From positions 3,008,001 to 3,072,000 of the forward strand of contig CBDBGH010000003.1 of assembly GCA_965205265.1 (NCBI GenBank): a stretch of 64,000 nt of DNA, given 5' to 3'. Within the stretch, counting starts at the first letter, position 1. Every line of letters starts with the position of its first letter. Of the stretch, positions 6,869 through 38,761 are shown piece by piece. Origin of the DNA: Alphaproteobacteria bacterium. GTDB taxonomy: Bacteria; Pseudomonadota; Alphaproteobacteria; Bin95. Below the pieces are notes generated by a model, which ran no database searches, was not told where the DNA came from, and worked only from the letters and a program-made list of their open reading frames with translations. Both the position numbers and the translations under genes were made by a program.

Positions 6869-7791
6869 GCCCAGGGGCCTTTCCGGCGGGGCCCCTGCAT
6901 CCAGGAGGCCCCGGTCGGCGCGCCGCCCGGCCGCCCGGCGGGGCGCGGCCGCCGCGCGCGGGCCATGTCCCGGAGCGCCCGGACCCGGTTCGCCGTCGAG
7001 GGATGCGTCGAGAACAGCCTGTCGGCCTTGTGCGCATGCAACGGGTTCACGATGAACATATGGGCCGTGGCGGGGTTGCGCTCGGCCGCATGGTTGTCGA
7101 TGCGCGCCGCGCCCCGCTCCAGGCGCTCGAGCGCGGAGGCGAGCGCCAGCGGGTCGCCGCAGATGTCCGCGCCAAGCCGGTCGGCCTCGTATTCGCGCGC
7201 CCGGCTGATCGCCATCTGCACCAGCATGGCCGCCATGGGCGCCAGAATCGCGACAAGCAGCGCGCCGGCGAAACCGAGCGGGCTGTTGCGCCCGCCGCCG
7301 AAGAAGAGGCCGAAATTCGCGAGCATCGACACCGCGCCCGCAACCGTCGCGGTGATCGTCATGATGAGCGTGTCGCGGTTCTTCACATGCGCGAGCTCAT
7401 GCGCCATCACGCCTTCGACCTCCTTTTGCGAAAGAGTCCCGAGCAGGCCCGTCGTGGCCGCCACGGCGGCGTTCTCCGGGTTGCGGCCGGTGGCGAAGGC
7501 GTTGGGCTGGTCGTTCCGGACGACATAGACGCGCGGCATCGGCAGGTCCGCCCGCTGCGACAGGCGCCGGACCGCGGCGTAAAGCTCCGGCGCGCGCCGT
7601 TCGTCCACCTCCTCGGCGCCGTACATGGACAGCAGCATCCGGTCCGAGTTCCACCAGGCGAAGGCGTTCATGCCGAGCGCCGCGACAAGCGCCAGCCCCA
7701 TGCCGGCAGGGCCGCCCAGCAGGTAGCCGACGGCGAGGAACAGGCCGGTCAGACCGGCGAGCAGGATCGCGGTGCGGGCGAAGTTCGGCAT
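6865..7791 (-). CDS. htpX: Zinc metalloprotease HtpX
   Basis: [25 protein letters not shown] and FSTHP motifs. Confidence 0.95.
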
Positions 7792-32327: not shown

Positions 32328-33359
32328 CTACCTCCCGGCGCGCATCCCGCTAAGCGCCGCCTCCACATCGAAGGACGGGGTGCGCCCTTCCTGGGGCCGT
32401 GTGCCCTCGACCGCGATTTCGGGCGCGGTCGGGCGCATCGCGTCGTTCTTCAGCCAGAGCCTGAGCAGATGGCGGCGCCACTCCGGCTCCTCCCAGTCCT
32501 CGAAGGCCGTGCGGGCGTGCAGATGGGTGAAATTGTTGAACCAGAGGATCTCCCCCGGCCCGAGCGTGAACCGCAATTGCAGCTCATCGCTGCGCGCCGC
32601 CGCCAGGAAGGCCTCGACGGCCTCTTCCGCAAACCCTTCGAGCGATTCCCCTTTCGCCTCCTGGCCGAGAACCGCGTAGGTCCTGACCCAACGGCAGCTG
32701 ACCTTGCCTTCGATGGACGAGAAGACCGGCACCTTCCAGGGCGTGACGGGGTCCTCGCCGGGCGCCTCCTCGCCGCGCCGGTGCATGTAGAAGCCTTCGT
32801 AAAGCCGTTCCAGATAGTCCGGCCTCCCGGCGAACAGCCGGTTGTGGACGGCGAGCGCGCTGGTGAGGTGCGACACGCCGCCCTTCCTTGCGACGCGCAG
32901 GCTGAACAGGCCGACGACATGCGCGCGGTCCGTATGCGGGTCGAGCTCCCGGCGGTTGCGGTAGGCGCGCGCATGCGGGTCTTCGCGTGTCACGTCCCGG
33001 ACATGGCCCAGCCGGTCGCCGAGGACGCTTTGCGACATGCCGGTCCCGAGCCGCGTGCCCATCGCCCAATAGACCCGCTCCGCGTCTTCCTGCCGCCAGC
33101 GTTCGACCGGCAGGCCCGCCATCACCGCGAAGCCGCGCCCGTCCCGCAGCTCGTCGTAGAGGGCGGCGAGCCGCGCCTCGACCGACGGGCAACGGAAATC
33201 GTCCCTGCCGATGTCGTCGAGCGCCTTGCCCGCCCGGTCCATCTCCCGGATGAACCCGTCAAGCTCCGCGATCTCAGCCGCCGTCAGCCGGACCGTGTAG
33301 TCCTCCGGGCCGGCGAAATCCCCGACGGTCCAGATACCCGGGTCGTCAACGGCCTGCAT
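32328..33359 (-). CDS. TauD/TfdA (clavaminate synthase-like) 2-oxoglutarate dioxygenase
   Basis: PHTD, NNFTHLHARTAF and RHLLRLWL motifs. Confidence 0.88.
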   Translation of the reverse strand: MQAVDDPGIWTVGDFAGPEDYTVRLTAAEIAELDGFIREMDRAGKALDDIGRDDFRCPSVEARLAALYDELRDGRGFAVMAGLPVERWRQEDAERVYWAMGTRLGTGMSQSVLGDRLGHVRDVTREDPHARAYRNRRELDPHTDRAHVVGLFSLRVARKGGVSHLTSALAVHNRLFAGRPDYLERLYEGFYMHRRGEEAPGEDPVTPWKVPVFSSIEGKVSCRWVRTYAVLGQEAKGESLEGFAEEAVEAFLAAARSDELQLRFTLGPGEILWFNNFTHLHARTAFEDWEEPEWRRHLLRLWLKNDAMRPTAPEIAVEGTRPQEGRTPSFDVEAALSGMRAGR

Positions 33360-33419
33360 CGGTCTCTCCCGCGATTTGCGCCCTGCATTCCACGGTCCGC
33401 CACCATACAGCAACAGACT

Positions 33420-33570
33420 GCGGGACGAAGCGCGGCTTGCTCCGCCGCGCCTGGCGCAGCACATGACGCGGCGCGAATTCGTCCATGAACACGAATGGCG
33501 GCGCGGCGATATCGCGCTCTGGGACAATGCCCGCGTGCTGCACCGCCGCGAGCCGTTCGATCCCGCCCCG
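33420..33570 (+). pseudogene. C-terminal remnant of a TauD-type dioxygenase
   Basis: HMTRREFVHEHEWRRGDIALWDNARVLHRREPFDP with no N-terminal part. Confidence 0.7.
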
Positions 33571-33594
33571 CCGCGCGCAGCGGGCCCACGCTCC

Positions 33595-34068
33595 TCAGCC
33601 TTCCGACGGCCCCCACCAGGCGGCGCCCACGATTTCTGCGTCGGGATCGTCCCTCCCGGTCTCGAACGTAAGCCGGACCCGGCATCCGGACCTGCCGACG
33701 ACCAGACGCGGCCGGTTCTCCGGACCGATCAGAAGGCCCCGCTCGGGGTCATAGGAAAAGCCCGTTTCCGGTTCGACGCCGCCCCATCGCATCAGGGCCG
33801 CGAAGCCGCCTCCCGCATAGCCGTCGATCAGCAGATAGAGCGACTCTTCTGCAGGGCTGCCGTAGCCGAGCACAACGGTGCTTCCATCCGACACGCGCAC
33901 GGCGACGATCTCATCGAGTGCCACCGTGCCGCGCGACTCCGGACCCGCATACACGCTTTTGCGGGAAAGGACCGTCACTACCGGCAGAAGCGGAGTCCTG
34001 TTCCCGGAACGCCGCTCAACTTCCGCGGAGCGTTCGGGAACCGGTCGCCTACATCCTTGCCGGATCAA
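33595..34068 (-). CDS. Hypothetical protein; HTH-less paralogue of the C-terminal domain of 34429-35160
   Basis: Shared pattern PVV..GP...V..DEI.AVR.SDG...GY...EE...GG...WG.V...Y.P..GL.IGPE..SG.R.RL; TTG start with GGAGAG upstream. Start uncertain. Confidence 0.6.
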   Translation of the reverse strand: MIRQGCRRPVPERSAEVERRSGNRTPLLPVVTVLSRKSVYAGPESRGTVALDEIVAVRVSDGSTVVLGYGSPAEESLYLLIDGYAGGGFAALMRWGGVEPETGFSYDPERGLLIGPENRPRLVVGRSGCRVRLTFETGRDDPDAEIVGAAWWGPSEG

Positions 34069-34428
34069 GCGGATCTCTCCTATTCTCCTGCCGCCGAACC
34101 GCGAGGCGTGTCCTCGCGGGATGCCCGGCAGGCTGACGGAGCTGCACCGCCGACCGCCTCTTCAGGCGGGACAACGGGAGTGAGGATCATGCAGCTCCGC
34201 CAGCCATGCGGGCCAATATGGGCCGGCGAATTCCGGATGGCCATAAAGTTTGCTTCAGTTCAGGAATTTATTTTTGGCGAAATATAAAGTTTTCTTCACT
34301 TTCAATTTGTGCAGTCTATTTCCCGACCCCATTCGCACGGTCATTTCCCGATCCGATCAACGGGCGCTATGTCCGCGAGGCCCGCTGCGAGACGATATGC
34401 ATGCCATAAAGCGGTGAGCACATGATGC

Positions 34429-35160
34429 TCAACCTTCTTCCTCTTGCCCTGTCACTGAGTAAACATAGGCCTGTTTAGCCGCTCTCTCATTTCTCTCCTT
34501 CAGGTATTCAAGCCGTATGCGGGTTCCGGAAGCCACGACCAAAAGCTGTGTCTGCCCCTCGGGGCCGATTCGCAGTCCCACCCCGGGCTGGTAAACGATC
34601 CTCGCTGTCTTCGCATCGACTTTGCCCCACTTCAACAGCTTGTGTATGTCGCCCCCGAGCCACCTTTCAGCCAGCCTGATGAGCGCGTATTCCTCTACTG
34701 GCGAATAACCGATGGGAATGTTCTCGCCGTCCGAAAGACGGACTGCCATGATTTCATCCATCTCTACCGAATCCAATTCTCTAGGTCCGTCGATCAGAAG
34801 GTCAACCGTAATTACAACCGGAACGCCGACATATCGGTCCTCTTCGTATTCACCTTCGTTCGCTTCTCCGGGAACGTCTTCCAGAAGATCGCTGACCTCC
34901 ACTCCCATGCCGACGGCAATGAAGCGAGCGGTTTTCGGGTCTACGTTTCCACCGTTGTTCTCGATCTTGCTGAGCGTAGCCATTGAAATCGGGTCGGGGT
35001 TGCCGTGTTTCATTCGGTCCCTGACCCATTCGATCATGGGCTTGTCATCCGAGTTCAGGACGTTGTCGATCAACTCCTTTATGAATTGCGGTTGGGTCAG
35101 GGCCATGGATTTTCGACGTTCGCGTACCATGTTCCCGCGTAGCATAAAGGACCTGGACAT
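34429..35160 (-). CDS. XRE-family HTH protein with unrecognised C-terminal domain
   Basis: VRERRKSMALTQ...ISMATLSKIEN...IAVGMGVEVSDLL (HTH_3 with an insertion); GAGGA upstream; lower GC. Confidence 0.8.
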   Translation of the reverse strand: MSRSFMLRGNMVRERRKSMALTQPQFIKELIDNVLNSDDKPMIEWVRDRMKHGNPDPISMATLSKIENNGGNVDPKTARFIAVGMGVEVSDLLEDVPGEANEGEYEEDRYVGVPVVITVDLLIDGPRELDSVEMDEIMAVRLSDGENIPIGYSPVEEYALIRLAERWLGGDIHKLLKWGKVDAKTARIVYQPGVGLRIGPEGQTQLLVVASGTRIRLEYLKERNERAAKQAYVYSVTGQEEEG

Positions 35161-35456
35161 TTCTCTTCCTCCTCGAAGTGAGTGGCGTTACCGTCCTATA
35201 TGTTGACCGGCAGTCCCTATGGCGGGCGAGACAGCCGGAAGAGGCCCGACCCGCTGTCCGGCGTCACCGGCCGGAGGCAGGGCCGTTGGGTTCGCACGAG
35301 GCAGCCTCCTTCCTTCCGATGGTGCGCAGTACGACGCGGAATCGTCGTTTTACGGCACCGGTCCGGGCAAGCTACCCAAATCGCCGGTCGTGACAAAGGG
35401 ACGATTCTGGTCACAACTGCGTGAGTAAATTTGCAGACAATTGACGGTTTCTTGAA

Positions 35457-35720
35457 TGCCCCGCTCGGGGATCGTACGAAAATCCCGTTTCCGGCTCGAC
35501 GCCGCCCCGGCGCATCAATGCCGCGAACCCGCCGCCCGCATAGCCGTCGATCAGGCAGATAGAACGCCTCTTCTTCAACGCCCCCGTAGCCGAGTATCGG
35601 CGCGCTCCCGTCCGACTGGCGGACGGCGACCATCTCGTCGAGCGCGACCGTGGCGCGCTCGCCGGGGCCGCCATGGATGAATTTGCAGGAAAGCACTATC
35701 GCCACCGGCAGAAGTGCAAC
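35457..35720 (-). pseudogene. Frameshifted, truncated second paralogue of the same domain
   Basis: LLPVAIVL..GPGERATVALDEMVAVRQSDG..GYG..EE..YL / LIDGYAGGGFAALMRRGGVEPETGFSYDP; extra bases at ~35554 and ~35470 relative to the 33.6-kb copy. Confidence 0.75.
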
Positions 35721-36344
35721 TCCCTCCTTTGGCGCAATCGGCGCTTCTTCGGAACGCCGCAGCCGTCCCCTTGAGCTTCCGGGAAAGCGGCGCGGAGTCC
35801 GCTGCCGTAACGGGCGAGTCTCCTGCGTTCCCTCGCTGTCCGACCGCATGGCGCGCCCTTCGTGCATTGTTTCCGGGCTGGAGGAGCGGCCCGAACAACC
35901 GGCTCATCACGTCCGGCGGTCGGGGGAGGGCCGTGCGCTCCTCCAGCTATGGACTCAATTCTATCAACAACTCCCATGCAGCGAGCAAGCTGCCATAATC
36001 CCTTATATTTCTTGGAAATTATGGTTCCCAGCAGCGATAGCCCGGACGCCTCGCGCACAATTTCCCCGGTCCGGGAGACCATTCTCCGGGTATCGGAAAA
36101 GTAAACCTACTTCCAAAAAGTTCGGACCGGAGGGAGCCTGTCGCAAAACTACCGCTGCCGGGAACGACGATTACGTCAATCGGGAATTTTTGGTGGCGCG
36201 AAACGGTTTTCCGCATGGCCATTTGTCGCGCGGGTCGAAATATGTGTCAGGGAAATACGGCCGAGCGTCCTTCCTGCGGCGGACGCAAGAGAGGTCCCGC
36301 AGGCGCTTGTGGGAGGGGCCAGACGGTGTAGGATTCCTGCCGTC

Positions 36345-37172
36345 ATGCGCAGCGATGTGGCCGAGCTTCACGCCTTCTATGACGGGCCGCTCGGGCGGGC
36401 GGCGGGGCTTGTGCTGGCTGAGCGCGTGCGACGGCGCTGGCCTTCGCTCGGCGGGATGCAGGTGCTGGGCCTCGGCTATGCGCCGCCCCTGCTCGACGGG
36501 CTCGGCGACGGGAGCGCGCATGTGCTGGCGGCCATGCCGGCGGGACAGGGCGCGCTTCGCTGGCCGGCGGAGGGCCGGTGCCGGACGGTGCTGACGGAAG
36601 AGGACGCACTGCCCTTCCCCGACCTCGCCTTCGACCGCGTGCTGCTCGCCCACGATGTCGAGACCTCGGACCATCTGGCGGGGCGGCTCCGCGAGGTCTG
36701 GCGCATCCTGGCGGCGGAGGGCCGGCTGATGGTCATCGCGCCGAGCCGCCGCGGCCTCTGGGCGCGCTTCGAACACACGCCCTTCGGCCACGGCCGGCCC
36801 TGGTCCCGCTCGCAACTGGAGCGGCTGCTGCGCGAGGCGATGTTCGAGCCGCTCGGCAGCGAGGAGGCGCTGTTCGCCCCGCCGCTCCGCCGGCTGGTGC
36901 GGCCGGGCGCGGCGGAGGCGTGGGAGCGGTTCGGGCGGCGCTGCCTGCCGGTATTCGGCGGGGTGGTAATTGCCGAGGCGGCGAAGCGGCTCGCGGGGGT
37001 CACGCCGCTTCCCGTGCGGTCGCGCCGGTCGTTGCTCCAGGGGGTGCTGAGTCCGCAGGCTACGCCGCAGCCGAGCGGCGCTCCTCGCTGCGGGCCGCCT
37101 CCCAGCCGATCAGCGCCGCCTTGCGGGCCAGCCCCCACTCGTAATTGTGGAGATAGCCGTTCGCGAGGATGA
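36345..37172 (+). CDS. Class I SAM-dependent methyltransferase (YafS-like)
   Basis: DVAELHAFY, LGLGYAPP, LPFPD..FDRVL and TPFGHGRPWS motifs. Confidence 0.85.
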   Translation: MRSDVAELHAFYDGPLGRAAGLVLAERVRRRWPSLGGMQVLGLGYAPPLLDGLGDGSAHVLAAMPAGQGALRWPAEGRCRTVLTEEDALPFPDLAFDRVLLAHDVETSDHLAGRLREVWRILAAEGRLMVIAPSRRGLWARFEHTPFGHGRPWSRSQLERLLREAMFEPLGSEEALFAPPLRRLVRPGAAEAWERFGRRCLPVFGGVVIAEAAKRLAGVTPLPVRSRRSLLQGVLSPQATPQPSGAPRCGPPPSRSAPPCGPAPTRNCGDSRSRG

Positions 37173-37905
37173 CCCGGTGGCAGGGCACGAGCCAGGAGAC
37201 CGGGTTGCGGCCGATGGCGGCGCCGACCGCCCGCGCCGCGCGCGGCGCGCCGACCGCCGCCGCCACATCGCCATAGGTCGCGAGCGCGCCCGGCGGAATG
37301 CGCAAGAGCGCGTCCCAGACGCGGATCTGGAAGTTGGTGCCGTGCAGGGTGAGCGGCAGCGGCGGCGCGGCGGCCTTGGGCTCGAATATGCGCCCGGCGA
37401 GCGCGGCGGTCTCGTCCGGCGCCTCCGTGAAGGCCGCGGCCGGCCAGCGCCGGCGCATGTTGTCGAGCCCCGCCCGCTCTTCTCCCTCGGCGGCGAAGGC
37501 GAGCCCGCAGATGCCCCGGTCGGTCGCCATCAGCAGGCAGCGGCCGAAGGGGGAATCGTGGATGCCGTAGCGGATGGCGAGGCCCGCGCCGCGCCGCTTG
37601 TAGTCGCCGGGGGTGACGGCCTCGTGGGTGACGAACAAATCGTGCAGCCGGCCGGGGCCGGAGAGGCCGGCGTCCCAGGAGGCCTCCAGCACGCTGGCGT
37701 TCTCCGCCAGGCTGGCCTTGGCGCGCTCCAGGGTCAGATATTGCAGGAACTTCGTCGGGCTGATACCGACCCAGCGGCGGAAGGTGCGCTGGAAATGGTG
37801 CGGGCTCATGCAGGCGGCGGCAGCCATCTCGTCGAGCCCCGGCTGGTCGGCCTGGTTCTCGGCGATCATGACGAGCGCGGCTTCGATGCGGGAATAGAGG
37901 CTCAT
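37060..37905 (-). CDS. Ada-like AraC-HTH / methylated-DNA--protein-cysteine methyltransferase
   Basis: SPHHFQRTF, GTNFQIRVW, NPVSWLVPCHRV (PCHR). Confidence 0.92.
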   Translation of the reverse strand: MSLYSRIEAALVMIAENQADQPGLDEMAAAACMSPHHFQRTFRRWVGISPTKFLQYLTLERAKASLAENASVLEASWDAGLSGPGRLHDLFVTHEAVTPGDYKRRGAGLAIRYGIHDSPFGRCLLMATDRGICGLAFAAEGEERAGLDNMRRRWPAAAFTEAPDETAALAGRIFEPKAAAPPLPLTLHGTNFQIRVWDALLRIPPGALATYGDVAAAVGAPRAARAVGAAIGRNPVSWLVPCHRVILANGYLHNYEWGLARKAALIGWEAARSEERRSAAA

Positions 37906-38085: not shown

Positions 38086-38328
38086 GTGGCCAGCATCACG
38101 ATCCGCAACCTCGACGACGATGTGAAGACCCGCCTGCGGGTGCGCGCGGCGGACAACGGGCGGTCCATGGAAGAGGAGGCGCGGCTCATCCTGCGCGACG
38201 CCGTCGGGCGCAAGACCCCTCCCCGGAATCTCGCGAGCGCGATTCGCGCGCGGATCGCGCCTCTCGGCGGCGTGGACCTGGAATTGCCGCCGCGCGGGCC
38301 CGGGCGCGAACCGCCGTCCTTCGATTGA
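38086..38328 (+). CDS. FitA-like RHH antitoxin
   Basis: ASITIRNLDDDVKTRLRVRAADNGRSMEEEARLIL. Confidence 0.9.
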   Translation: MASITIRNLDDDVKTRLRVRAADNGRSMEEEARLILRDAVGRKTPPRNLASAIRARIAPLGGVDLELPPRGPGREPPSFD

Positions 38329-38338
38329 GGCGGCGGCG

Positions 38339-38761
38339 GTGTTCCTGCTGGACACGAACATAATATCCGAACTCCTGCGTCCGTCGCCCGACCCGGCTGT
38401 CGAAACCTGGGTCGGTGACCACCGGGCAACGGACCTGTATTTCTCGGCAATCGGCGAGGCGGAGTTGCGTTACGGCGTTGCCGTTCTGCCGGCCGGGCAG
38501 CGGCAGGCCGCGCTTGCCTCCGCCATCGAGGCAATCCTGCAAGAGGACTTTATAGACCGGGTTCTCCCGTTCGACCGCGAGGCGGCGCGGGACTATGCGG
38601 ACATAGCCGCCATGCGCCGCGCCGCCGGCCGCACCGTGCTGCCGGCCGACAGCCAGATCGCGGCGATCGCGCGTTCCCGCGGGATGGCCGTGGCGACGCG
38701 CAACGTCCGGGACTTCGAGCACATCGGCATCGAGGTCATCGACCCCTGGACGGCGGCATGA
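38339..38761 (+). CDS. FitB/VapC PIN toxin
   Basis: LLDTNIISE, ADSQIAAIA, ATRNVRDF and IDPW motifs. Confidence 0.92.
   Translation: MFLLDTNIISELLRPSPDPAVETWVGDHRATDLYFSAIGEAELRYGVAVLPAGQRQAALASAIEAILQEDFIDRVLPFDREAARDYADIAAMRRAAGRTVLPADSQIAAIARSRGMAVATRNVRDFEHIGIEVIDPWTAA

Follow-up and report, generated by a model that had tools for sequence, protein, structure and literature searches.

The DNA analysed here is a stretch of 64,000 nucleotides (the window) from the genome of an alphaproteobacterium (contig CBDBGH010000003.1, positions 3,008,001 to 3,072,000; genome G000, 5.7 Mb in 3 contigs). The guanine-plus-cytosine (GC) content of the window is about 70%. It contains three copies of a domain of about 115 amino acids (aa), which are co-oriented and all located on the minus strand. 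The central copy is fused to a helix-turn-helix (HTH) region of the XRE type, the downstream copy stands alone and the upstream copy is only a remnant. An original prediction, made from the letters of the window alone, had described these copies as a candidate regulator/decoy system. Its coordinates and its three-copy description agree with the open reading frames (ORFs) and with a self-BLAST of the window. The two intact genes, called fused gene and solo gene in the following, and their control regions are arranged as follows:

34429-35160, minus strand: fused regulator gene, an ORF of 243 aa with an XRE-type HTH followed by the unnamed C-terminal domain
34876-35160, minus strand: HTH region (residues 1-95), recognised by a partial HTH_3 match, model helices and Foldseek
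34990-35052, minus strand: extra helix region (residues ~37-57) between helix 2 and the recognition helix
34441-34836, minus strand: C-terminal domain of the fused protein (residues ~109-240), alpha/beta, with a predicted dimer interface
34243-34357, no strand: AT-rich spacer between fused and solo genes, with two direct-repeat pairs
34123-34213, minus strand: leader hairpin of the solo gene, with 24-nt arms that are 83% complementary
33595-34068, minus strand: solo gene, an ORF of 157 aa with the domain at residues ~25-157 and without HTH recognition helices

The solo gene is located 360 bp downstream of the fused gene. The GC content is 0.54 for the fused gene and 0.665 for the solo gene, compared to 0.70-0.75 for the neighbouring genes. 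No further copy of the domain was found in the own genome, where the 5 matches at E ≤ 10 consist of the 4 known pieces and noise (E 0.48).

For the fused protein an orthologue with 81% identity was found in a related genome (P0002). Its AlphaFold model, for which 19 family members were aligned, has a mean predicted local distance difference test score (pLDDT) of 87, with values of 91-98 over residues 11-90 and of 90-97 across the core of the C-terminal domain. The N-terminal part is modelled as helices at residues 9-18, 23-35, 40-50, 60-67, 75-85 and 89-92, and is followed by a disordered linker (residues 99-108). The C-terminal domain consists of a helix (119-128), two strands (131-141 and 147-153), two helices (157-165 and 172-178), three strands (187-191, 195-199 and 206-218) and a final helix (225-237). 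Invariant residues of this domain are E136, A139, G151, L163, W178, G195, G199, S211, G212 and R223.

The HTH_3 family of Pfam (PF01381) matches residues 58-92 of the fused protein at profile positions 21-55, with 17.7 bits and thus below the cut-off of 23. The match is only partial because about 20-30 residues are inserted ahead of the recognition helix. Seven of the 19 family members match HTH_3 at E ≤ 1 (best E 3.4e-5). A five-helix HTH fold was recovered with Foldseek, which aligned the model to C.BclI, the 434 repressor, HipB and SinR over about 80-90 columns with probabilities of 0.97-1.00, at E-values of only 0.04-0.2. The template modelling score by target (TMt) is 0.79 for a 434 repressor variant, 0.71 for HipB and 0.72 for SinR. 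The extra helix 40-50 and its flanks lie between helix 23-35 and the recognition helix 60-67, and the insertion of about 30 residues is absent from four relatives (P0006, P0009, P0011 and P0013). The unusual insertion between the HTH helices, already pointed out in the original prediction, is therefore real and common to part of the family.

Compared with the orthologue in G013, the ratio of non-synonymous to synonymous divergence (omega) of the fused gene is 0.48 for the whole gene and 0.15-0.22 for the C-terminal domain. The two halves of the gene have diverged to different degrees from this orthologue (L006 6001-6732). For the HTH part a synonymous divergence (dS) of 0.43 and a non-synonymous divergence (dN) of 0.24 were obtained, for the C-terminal domain a dS of 0.12 and a dN of 0.025. 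This suggests a mosaic (recombinant) gene or a fast change of DNA specificity. Another XRE protein is encoded in the same genome (L025 1438-2187, plus strand, G000:C3 ~1224958-1225707; HTH_3 E 2e-10). It carries a different, low-GC C-terminal half of about 140 aa without Pfam match and was rejected as a relative of the domain, since the HTH is the only common part.

The original prediction could not assign the domain to any family, and this was borne out by all searches. In none of the 19 members did Pfam match the domain at E ≤ 1, and NCBIfam, PHROGs and PADLOC hold nothing on it. A profile search of all PDB sequences returned weak HTH rows and nothing on the domain. One row, a PsbY repeat, was rejected as it matches profile positions 37-89 in the N-terminal/HTH part and not the C-terminal domain. 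The model of the solo protein is confident in its core (pLDDT 92-96 for residues 51-130), with residues 1-24 disordered. With this model Foldseek found no match at E ≤ 0.001 in PDB or BFVD. VIA-align against 48,161 representative chains reached a best Z of 3.2 and none of Z ≥ 5, while the best Z for unmatched models is typically 7-8. Such empty fold searches are unusual, yet they are no proof of a new fold, for which the domain is a candidate.

The domain is also very rare. A phmmer search with the solo protein revealed 17 proteins at E ≤ 0.001 among 1.84 billion representatives. Two of these are products of the window itself (P0001, P0012), and 12 were judged by inspection to be true relatives from other loci (P0003-P0011, P0013, P0016 and P0017). 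P0014, P0015 and P0018 are repeat proteins, which were taken as false positives after inspection of their sequences. Word-based searches of 5.8 billion clusters added P0020, P0022, P0023 and P0024. The domain was found in 5 of the 37 genomes of the taxonomic family, all of which belong to one genus of 17 genomes (G000 counted), and 11 of the 16 other genomes of this genus are without a copy. Among 400 genomes sampled at the class level and 400 at the phylum level it occurs in none but G000. No relatives of the domain were found in metagenome contigs (scanned with alignment A8) or viral contigs, nor by tblastn in plasmids or phages. Across these libraries and genomes the domain appears to be undescribed; the literature search covered the comparison with SinR/SinI only, as the domain has no name under which it could be sought.

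Outside of the genus, all seven full-length members are fused to a DNA-binding domain, which is of the XRE type in six cases and of the OmpR type (PF00486) in P0016. In a distant member, P0017 (529 aa), the C-terminal part could be aligned to the domain profile (hhalign probability 62%, E 7.7e-5, 110 columns). The protein was found in two stretches by phmmer and may hold two units, each of a winged-helix-like part and the domain, of which only the C-terminal unit was confirmed by hhalign. Two such units in one chain may fit a dimeric module, which is a lead only.

The solo ORF starts with TTG, preceded by GGAGAG 6 nt upstream, and its close relative P0020 has a methionine at the same position. 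The origin of the solo gene can be seen from P0024, a complete fused protein of 238 aa with a C-terminal domain of the solo lineage. Compared with P0024, the solo proteins retain the first ~33 residues and then lack about 62 (alignment A9). The gap takes out the inserted helix together with the recognition helix and helices 4-5; helices 1-2 are kept as a stub. By this alignment, the solo gene therefore arose by in-frame deletion from a paralogue of the fused regulator. A maximum-likelihood tree of the domain was calculated from 23 rows, leaving out the window remnant with its ORF (P0012), P0017 and the false positives. In this tree the 11 rows of the solo lineage, to which the fused P0024 and P0003 also belong, group in a single clade (support 91/98). 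The five low-GC fused proteins of the genus are its sister clade (91/90), and the distant fused members lie outside. Two subtypes of solo proteins can be distinguished, one of 176 aa (G003, G004, P0004, P0022 and P0023) and one of 157 aa (the window, G013 and P0020).

The omega of the solo gene compared with G013 is 0.33 for the whole gene and 0.24 for residues 25-140, with a dS of 0.40-0.44. Judged by these ratios, the fused and the solo gene are both under purifying selection. The stand-alone downstream copy is thus what the original prediction had assumed, an HTH-less paralogue of the regulator's own domain that is kept by selection.

Pairing of the two proteins was modelled with residues 108-243 of the fused and residues 22-157 of the solo protein. 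Values of 0.72, 0.79 and 0.80 (median 0.79) were obtained for the interaction prediction score from aligned errors (ipSAE), and the best of 3 controls reached 0.00. The mark applied to this score is reached by 116 of 157 solved complexes and by 2 of 215 mismatched pairs. At least 62% of the contacts are common to the runs, and the pLDDT of the partners is at least 76. The predicted interface is pseudo-symmetric. The conserved long strands (fused 211-224, solo 127-139) pair antiparallel, and the segments ahead of the domain (fused 108-120, solo 25-36) pair as well. The best-defined predicted contacts are those of fused 215-220 with solo 129-134 and of fused 111-116 with solo 29-34. No similar solved complex was found in the PDB profile, Foldseek and VIA-align searches, and model memory is therefore an unlikely source of the score. 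Self-association of the domain is predicted by this model.

The region upstream of the solo gene is conspicuous as well. The spacer contains direct repeats of 18 nt at a spacing of 41 nt and of 15 nt at a spacing of 25 nt, and is nearly identical in G013 except for a 21-nt insertion. It is a candidate promoter/operator region for the solo gene. A consensus promoter scan found nothing in the spacer. A promoter-like site inside the fused ORF and a terminator-like site on the plus strand were noted and set aside as not useful. The leader hairpin has a fold z-score of -4.9 and occurs upstream of all six solo-type copies aligned, including the dead copy. Its positions are:

Window 34123-34213, minus strand: hairpin of the solo gene
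Window 35868-35955, minus strand: hairpin of the dead copy
L006 ~6975-7065, L012 ~2395-2480, L017 ~940-1020 and L011 ~1233-1310: hairpins of the relatives

In the six copies 88% of the cells are paired, compared to 28-55% in slid controls. Six pairs are changed on both sides, compared to 2.3 +/- 1.0 in shuffles, and none of 500 shuffles reaches the observed number. The word in the loop is pyrimidine-rich (CCTCACTCCC in the window). No Rfam family was found for the hairpin; two snoRNA rows below the threshold in the region 33000-36600 were taken as chance. The hairpin could be a translational or stability element. Its conservation, together with the AT-rich region of its own, suggests that the solo gene is separately controlled, and the level of the solo protein would thus probably be set separately from that of the regulator.

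In the original prediction the upstream copy was described as frameshifted and as resembling the downstream copy at the DNA level. Both points were confirmed, and the damage turned out to be worse than described. Two features are assigned to this side of the locus:

35458-35960, minus strand: second solo gene of the 176-aa type, now a remnant, leader included; defined by pairwise alignment
35251-35457, no strand: junction DNA from the remnant to the fused-gene cassette, no relative found

Self-BLAST aligns 33732-33990 to 35454-35714 with 79.4% identity over 262 nt (E 3.7e-58), and a repeat search gives 73-87% identity for the same blocks. The weaker extension of this likeness to ~34217/35960 is also real, as 35960-35458 can be aligned over some 500 nt with solo genes of relatives, and both copies have the leader hairpin. 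The upstream copy is split over two frames (35555-35867 and 35411-35560). It contains two 1-nt insertions, at ~35555 and ~35471, and with its homology ending at ~35458 it lacks about 47 codons. Between the remnant and the solo gene 41.8 synonymous and 55.2 non-synonymous differences were counted over 104 codons (dS 0.82, dN 0.29, omega 0.36). The many synonymous differences already seen in the first reading are thus present, and the divergence would have been gathered mostly while both copies were coding.

The solo genes of G003 and G004 share 74% identity with the remnant and its leader over ~500 nt, and the N-terminus and leader of the remnant are those of the 176-aa type. About 290 bp separate the remnant from the methyltransferase gene, as is also the case for the solo gene of G003. 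In G013, the closest relative, the cassette of fused and solo gene is the same (86% identity over 1.7 kb), and a VapB-PIN pair takes the place of the remnant. The proposal that the upstream copy also acts as a working decoy has to be given up, since two frameshifts and a truncation have made it a pseudogene, its solo allele type is a different one and the G013 locus lacks it. From its sequence, the remnant is dead and is best taken as a relic, not as part of a system. The simplest reading of these data would be that the genome formerly had a solo gene of the 176-aa type beside the methyltransferase gene, as G003 has today. A low-GC cassette of a fused gene and a 157-aa-type solo gene, as in G013, would then have arrived and removed the 3' end of the resident solo gene, thereby replacing most of that gene. 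For the segments 35961-36249 and 35251-35457, the other 36 genomes of the family (37 in total) gave no match.

Regulators with a small protein partner of their own type are known from other bacteria. In Bacillus subtilis SinI and SlrA bind SinR and perturb the SinR tetramer, by which operator binding is lost (PMC3917956). The locus resembles SinR/SinI and SlrR/SlrA in that an XRE-type HTH repressor is accompanied by an adjacent small HTH-less protein with the same oligomerisation region; this shared region is seen in alignments A1 and A9. SinR and SinI have short helical hooks in common, and sinI is located upstream of sinR. Here, in contrast, the common part is an alpha/beta domain of about 115 aa with long strands and without sequence or fold match, and the small gene lies downstream of the regulator. 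The solo gene was also born in a different way, by an in-frame deletion of a full regulator with a stub of helices 1-2 kept, and its binding to the regulator is predicted by modelling. The SinR-SinI complex (1b0n) and SinR bound to DNA (3zkc) are among the structural matches, through the HTH only. SinI-type families of Pfam are not matched by any of the 19 members, and no homology to the oligomerisation region of SinR/SinI was found. By analogy, the locus would be a new variant of the SinR/SinI type of circuit logic, built on an undescribed rare domain and without membership in the SinR/SinI families.

Three further systems were compared. In Caulobacter and its phage phiCbK a cluster of paralogous XRE regulators interact physically and have common targets (PMC10688885). 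These are also alphaproteobacterial XRE paralogues, likened here by description alone, but all of them keep their DNA-binding domains, unlike the solo protein. Phage repressors of the Phage_CI_C (PF16452) and LexA/lambda-CI (Peptidase_S24) type have the same plan of HTH, linker and C-terminal self-association domain. In the ESM Atlas, the clusters ranked highest for the C-terminal domain of the fused protein are of the Phage_CI_C type (0.85-0.87), and in one cluster 16% of the members belong to Peptidase_S24; such scores, below 0.9 and with 82-97 of 256 features in common, are leads only. The solo query gave nothing above 0.79. The Phage_CI_C lead was rejected at the level of sequence, as hhalign of alignment A6 against 6 members reached a probability of 0.5% over 20 columns in the HTH part and hmmscan gave no match at E ≤ 1. 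Structures of the Phage_CI_C type and the C-terminal chains of LexA, UmuD and lambda CI are not among the Foldseek/VIA-align matches listed, and Pfam gave no match for Peptidase_S24. The invariant Ser211 is followed by an invariant Arg and not by Lys, as compared to the Ser-Lys dyad of Peptidase_S24. DdrO of Deinococcus also combines an HTH with C-terminal dimerisation and is the best Foldseek row for the full model (6rnx_B, E 0.038, 120 columns). Its root-mean-square deviation is 10 A, only the HTH superposes, and the domain-only model finds no DdrO chain.

These observations point to a possible mechanism. The regulator consists of an XRE-type HTH with an inserted helix, a disordered linker and the alpha/beta domain of about 115 aa. 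The domain would self-associate through an edge beta-strand and an N-terminal segment and would serve as the dimerisation module of the regulator, possibly also as a sensor. An in-frame deletion of about 60 residues in a paralogue has removed the DNA-reading helices and left the dimerisation domain intact. The solo protein would most likely form mixed dimers with the regulator, which carry one DNA-reading head and not two. Such dimers would weaken or re-tune operator binding, which would give the regulator a dominant-negative or anti-repressor of its own. By analogy, an antagonism like that of SinI against SinR is plausible. The proposal that free copies titrate the repressor is supported for the solo protein by the predicted pairing of the domains (0.79 compared to 0.00) but has lost the upstream copy, and the antagonism itself we infer. 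As a whole, the reading of the solo paralogue as a SinI-like antagonist is put forward tentatively, at slightly less than an even chance.

Several findings weigh against such an antagonist. Both chains of the complex model were given alignments of the same 19 proteins. The model thus tests self-association of the domain and cannot rank mixed dimers against fused-fused or solo-solo dimers. Identity between the solo protein and the C-terminal domain of the fused protein is only 32-38%, and the latter lies on a long branch (1.21); the two proteins may no longer match as partners. Of the 16 invariant or near-invariant positions, only 7 are located in the predicted interface. R141, D144, W178, G195 and G199 are among the positions off the interface, which hints at a second site. 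No convincing operator was obtained from inverted repeats or from 8-mers common to the two upstream regions.

The distribution in the genus is also relevant here. All loci with the domain lie between the same methyltransferase and TauD-family genes:

G000 (the window): fused, solo (and remnant)
G013: fused, solo
G005: fused, fused, solo
G004: fused (cut by the contig end), solo
G003: solo alone, followed by a PIN gene

The original prediction had asked for recurrence of the fused plus solo architecture. It is indeed present in 4 of the 5 domain-bearing genomes of the genus, but at the same syntenic spot and without independent recurrence. As all fused plus solo loci are syntenic within one genus, they represent one evolutionary event; outside of the genus there are fused forms only (7 of 7 full-length distant members). 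In addition, the solo gene of G003 (97% complete, 730 contigs) is intact, and this query detected no fused gene in that genome. The G003 locus is contiguous from the methyltransferase to the TauD gene. A pure antagonist of the fused regulator should not persist alone.

The G003 locus speaks for the strongest alternative, in which the solo protein acts alone as a homodimeric small-molecule binder or small enzyme. The adjacency would then result from tandem duplication, with no effect on the regulator. Several solo-type clusters are also found in metagenomes (P0004, P0020, P0022 and P0023), some of the conserved positions (E, R, D, Y, W, S and R) are located off the predicted interface, and the gene has its own leader and AT-rich upstream region. 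Apart from the solo proteins, however, the domain is always found on a DNA-binding domain (the seven distant full-length members, P0024 and P0003), and a regulatory module therefore fits better than an enzyme. The complex model also joins the two domains with high confidence, and no fold or family match points to an enzyme or binder. We regard an independent function of the solo protein as rather unlikely.

The solo gene might also be a decaying, functionless leftover of a duplicated regulator, like the upstream remnant. It arose by loss of the HTH, it starts with TTG, its first 24 residues are predicted to be disordered, and its sister copy at the same locus is clearly dead. Nevertheless, 5 genomes of the genus and at least 4 further clusters from metagenomes carry an intact ORF, the omega is 0.24-0.33 at a dS of ~0.4, the leader structure is kept with compensatory changes, and the core of the domain is modelled with confidence. 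Decay of the solo gene thus appears improbable.

The PIN and VapB genes in the islets of relatives (PIN and VapB in L006, PIN in L011) and the foreign composition of the fused gene might indicate a toxin-antitoxin or phage-defence function of the pair, as a module placed in a small variable islet. HTH proteins of the XRE type often serve as antitoxins. This explanation is very unlikely, as PADLOC assigned 0 families to both proteins, PHROGs gave weak HTH matches only (E 0.02-0.08), and no match was found in phage or plasmid records or in viral contigs. Moreover, both proteins have one domain in common, unlike the layout of toxin-antitoxin pairs. Excision or switching of the regulator gene through the co-oriented repeats that flank it, as also considered in the original prediction, is hardly credible at all. 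Repeats that are 79% identical over 262 nt and interrupted by indels are poorly suited to homologous recombination, and the upstream repeat is missing from G013, whose cassette is the same. In two runs the whole stretch is found as one identical piece, and neither a joint nor a collapsed allele was seen in the contigs of 4 runs. As contigs drop rare variants, these show the full form to be present and do not show other forms to be absent.

Some observations on the surroundings may be added. The segment 33373-36343 of the window and the syntenic loci L006, L011, L012 and L017 form a small variable islet with differing mixes of fused, solo, VapB and PIN genes. In run X5 the word depth over 33400-36400 is ~180 on the methyltransferase side, 5-10 in the fused and solo genes and ~45 on the TauD side. 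These depths would fit a mix of strains that differ in the islet, which contig depths cannot establish. A PIN-domain gene is also located in the window itself (38339-38761, plus strand; Pfam E 2.4e-14). The short ORF tail ahead of it (region 38100-38761, plus strand) has an antitoxin-like look and no Pfam match. Beside the PIN gene, at 37060-37905 on the minus strand, a fusion of an Ada-like AraC part with a methylguanine methyltransferase is encoded.

With a confident model but neither a family name nor a structural neighbour, the domain may represent a new fold and is a candidate for entry into family databases. A more far-reaching possibility is that it is a ligand-sensing and dimerisation module of new fold for regulators of the XRE and OmpR type, from which an anti-repressor was made by a single deletion and is gated by a leader RNA. 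Regulator, decoy and leader would then form a three-part switch. We consider this extended version unlikely in its entirety, and offer it as speculation. If the solo protein titrates the regulator, the locus would be a clean natural case of the birth of an anti-repressor by one in-frame deletion. Intermediate states are visible in relatives, namely in G005 with two fused genes and one solo gene, and in P0024 as the full fused form of the solo lineage. The scope of such a mechanism would be narrow, as the family is very rare.

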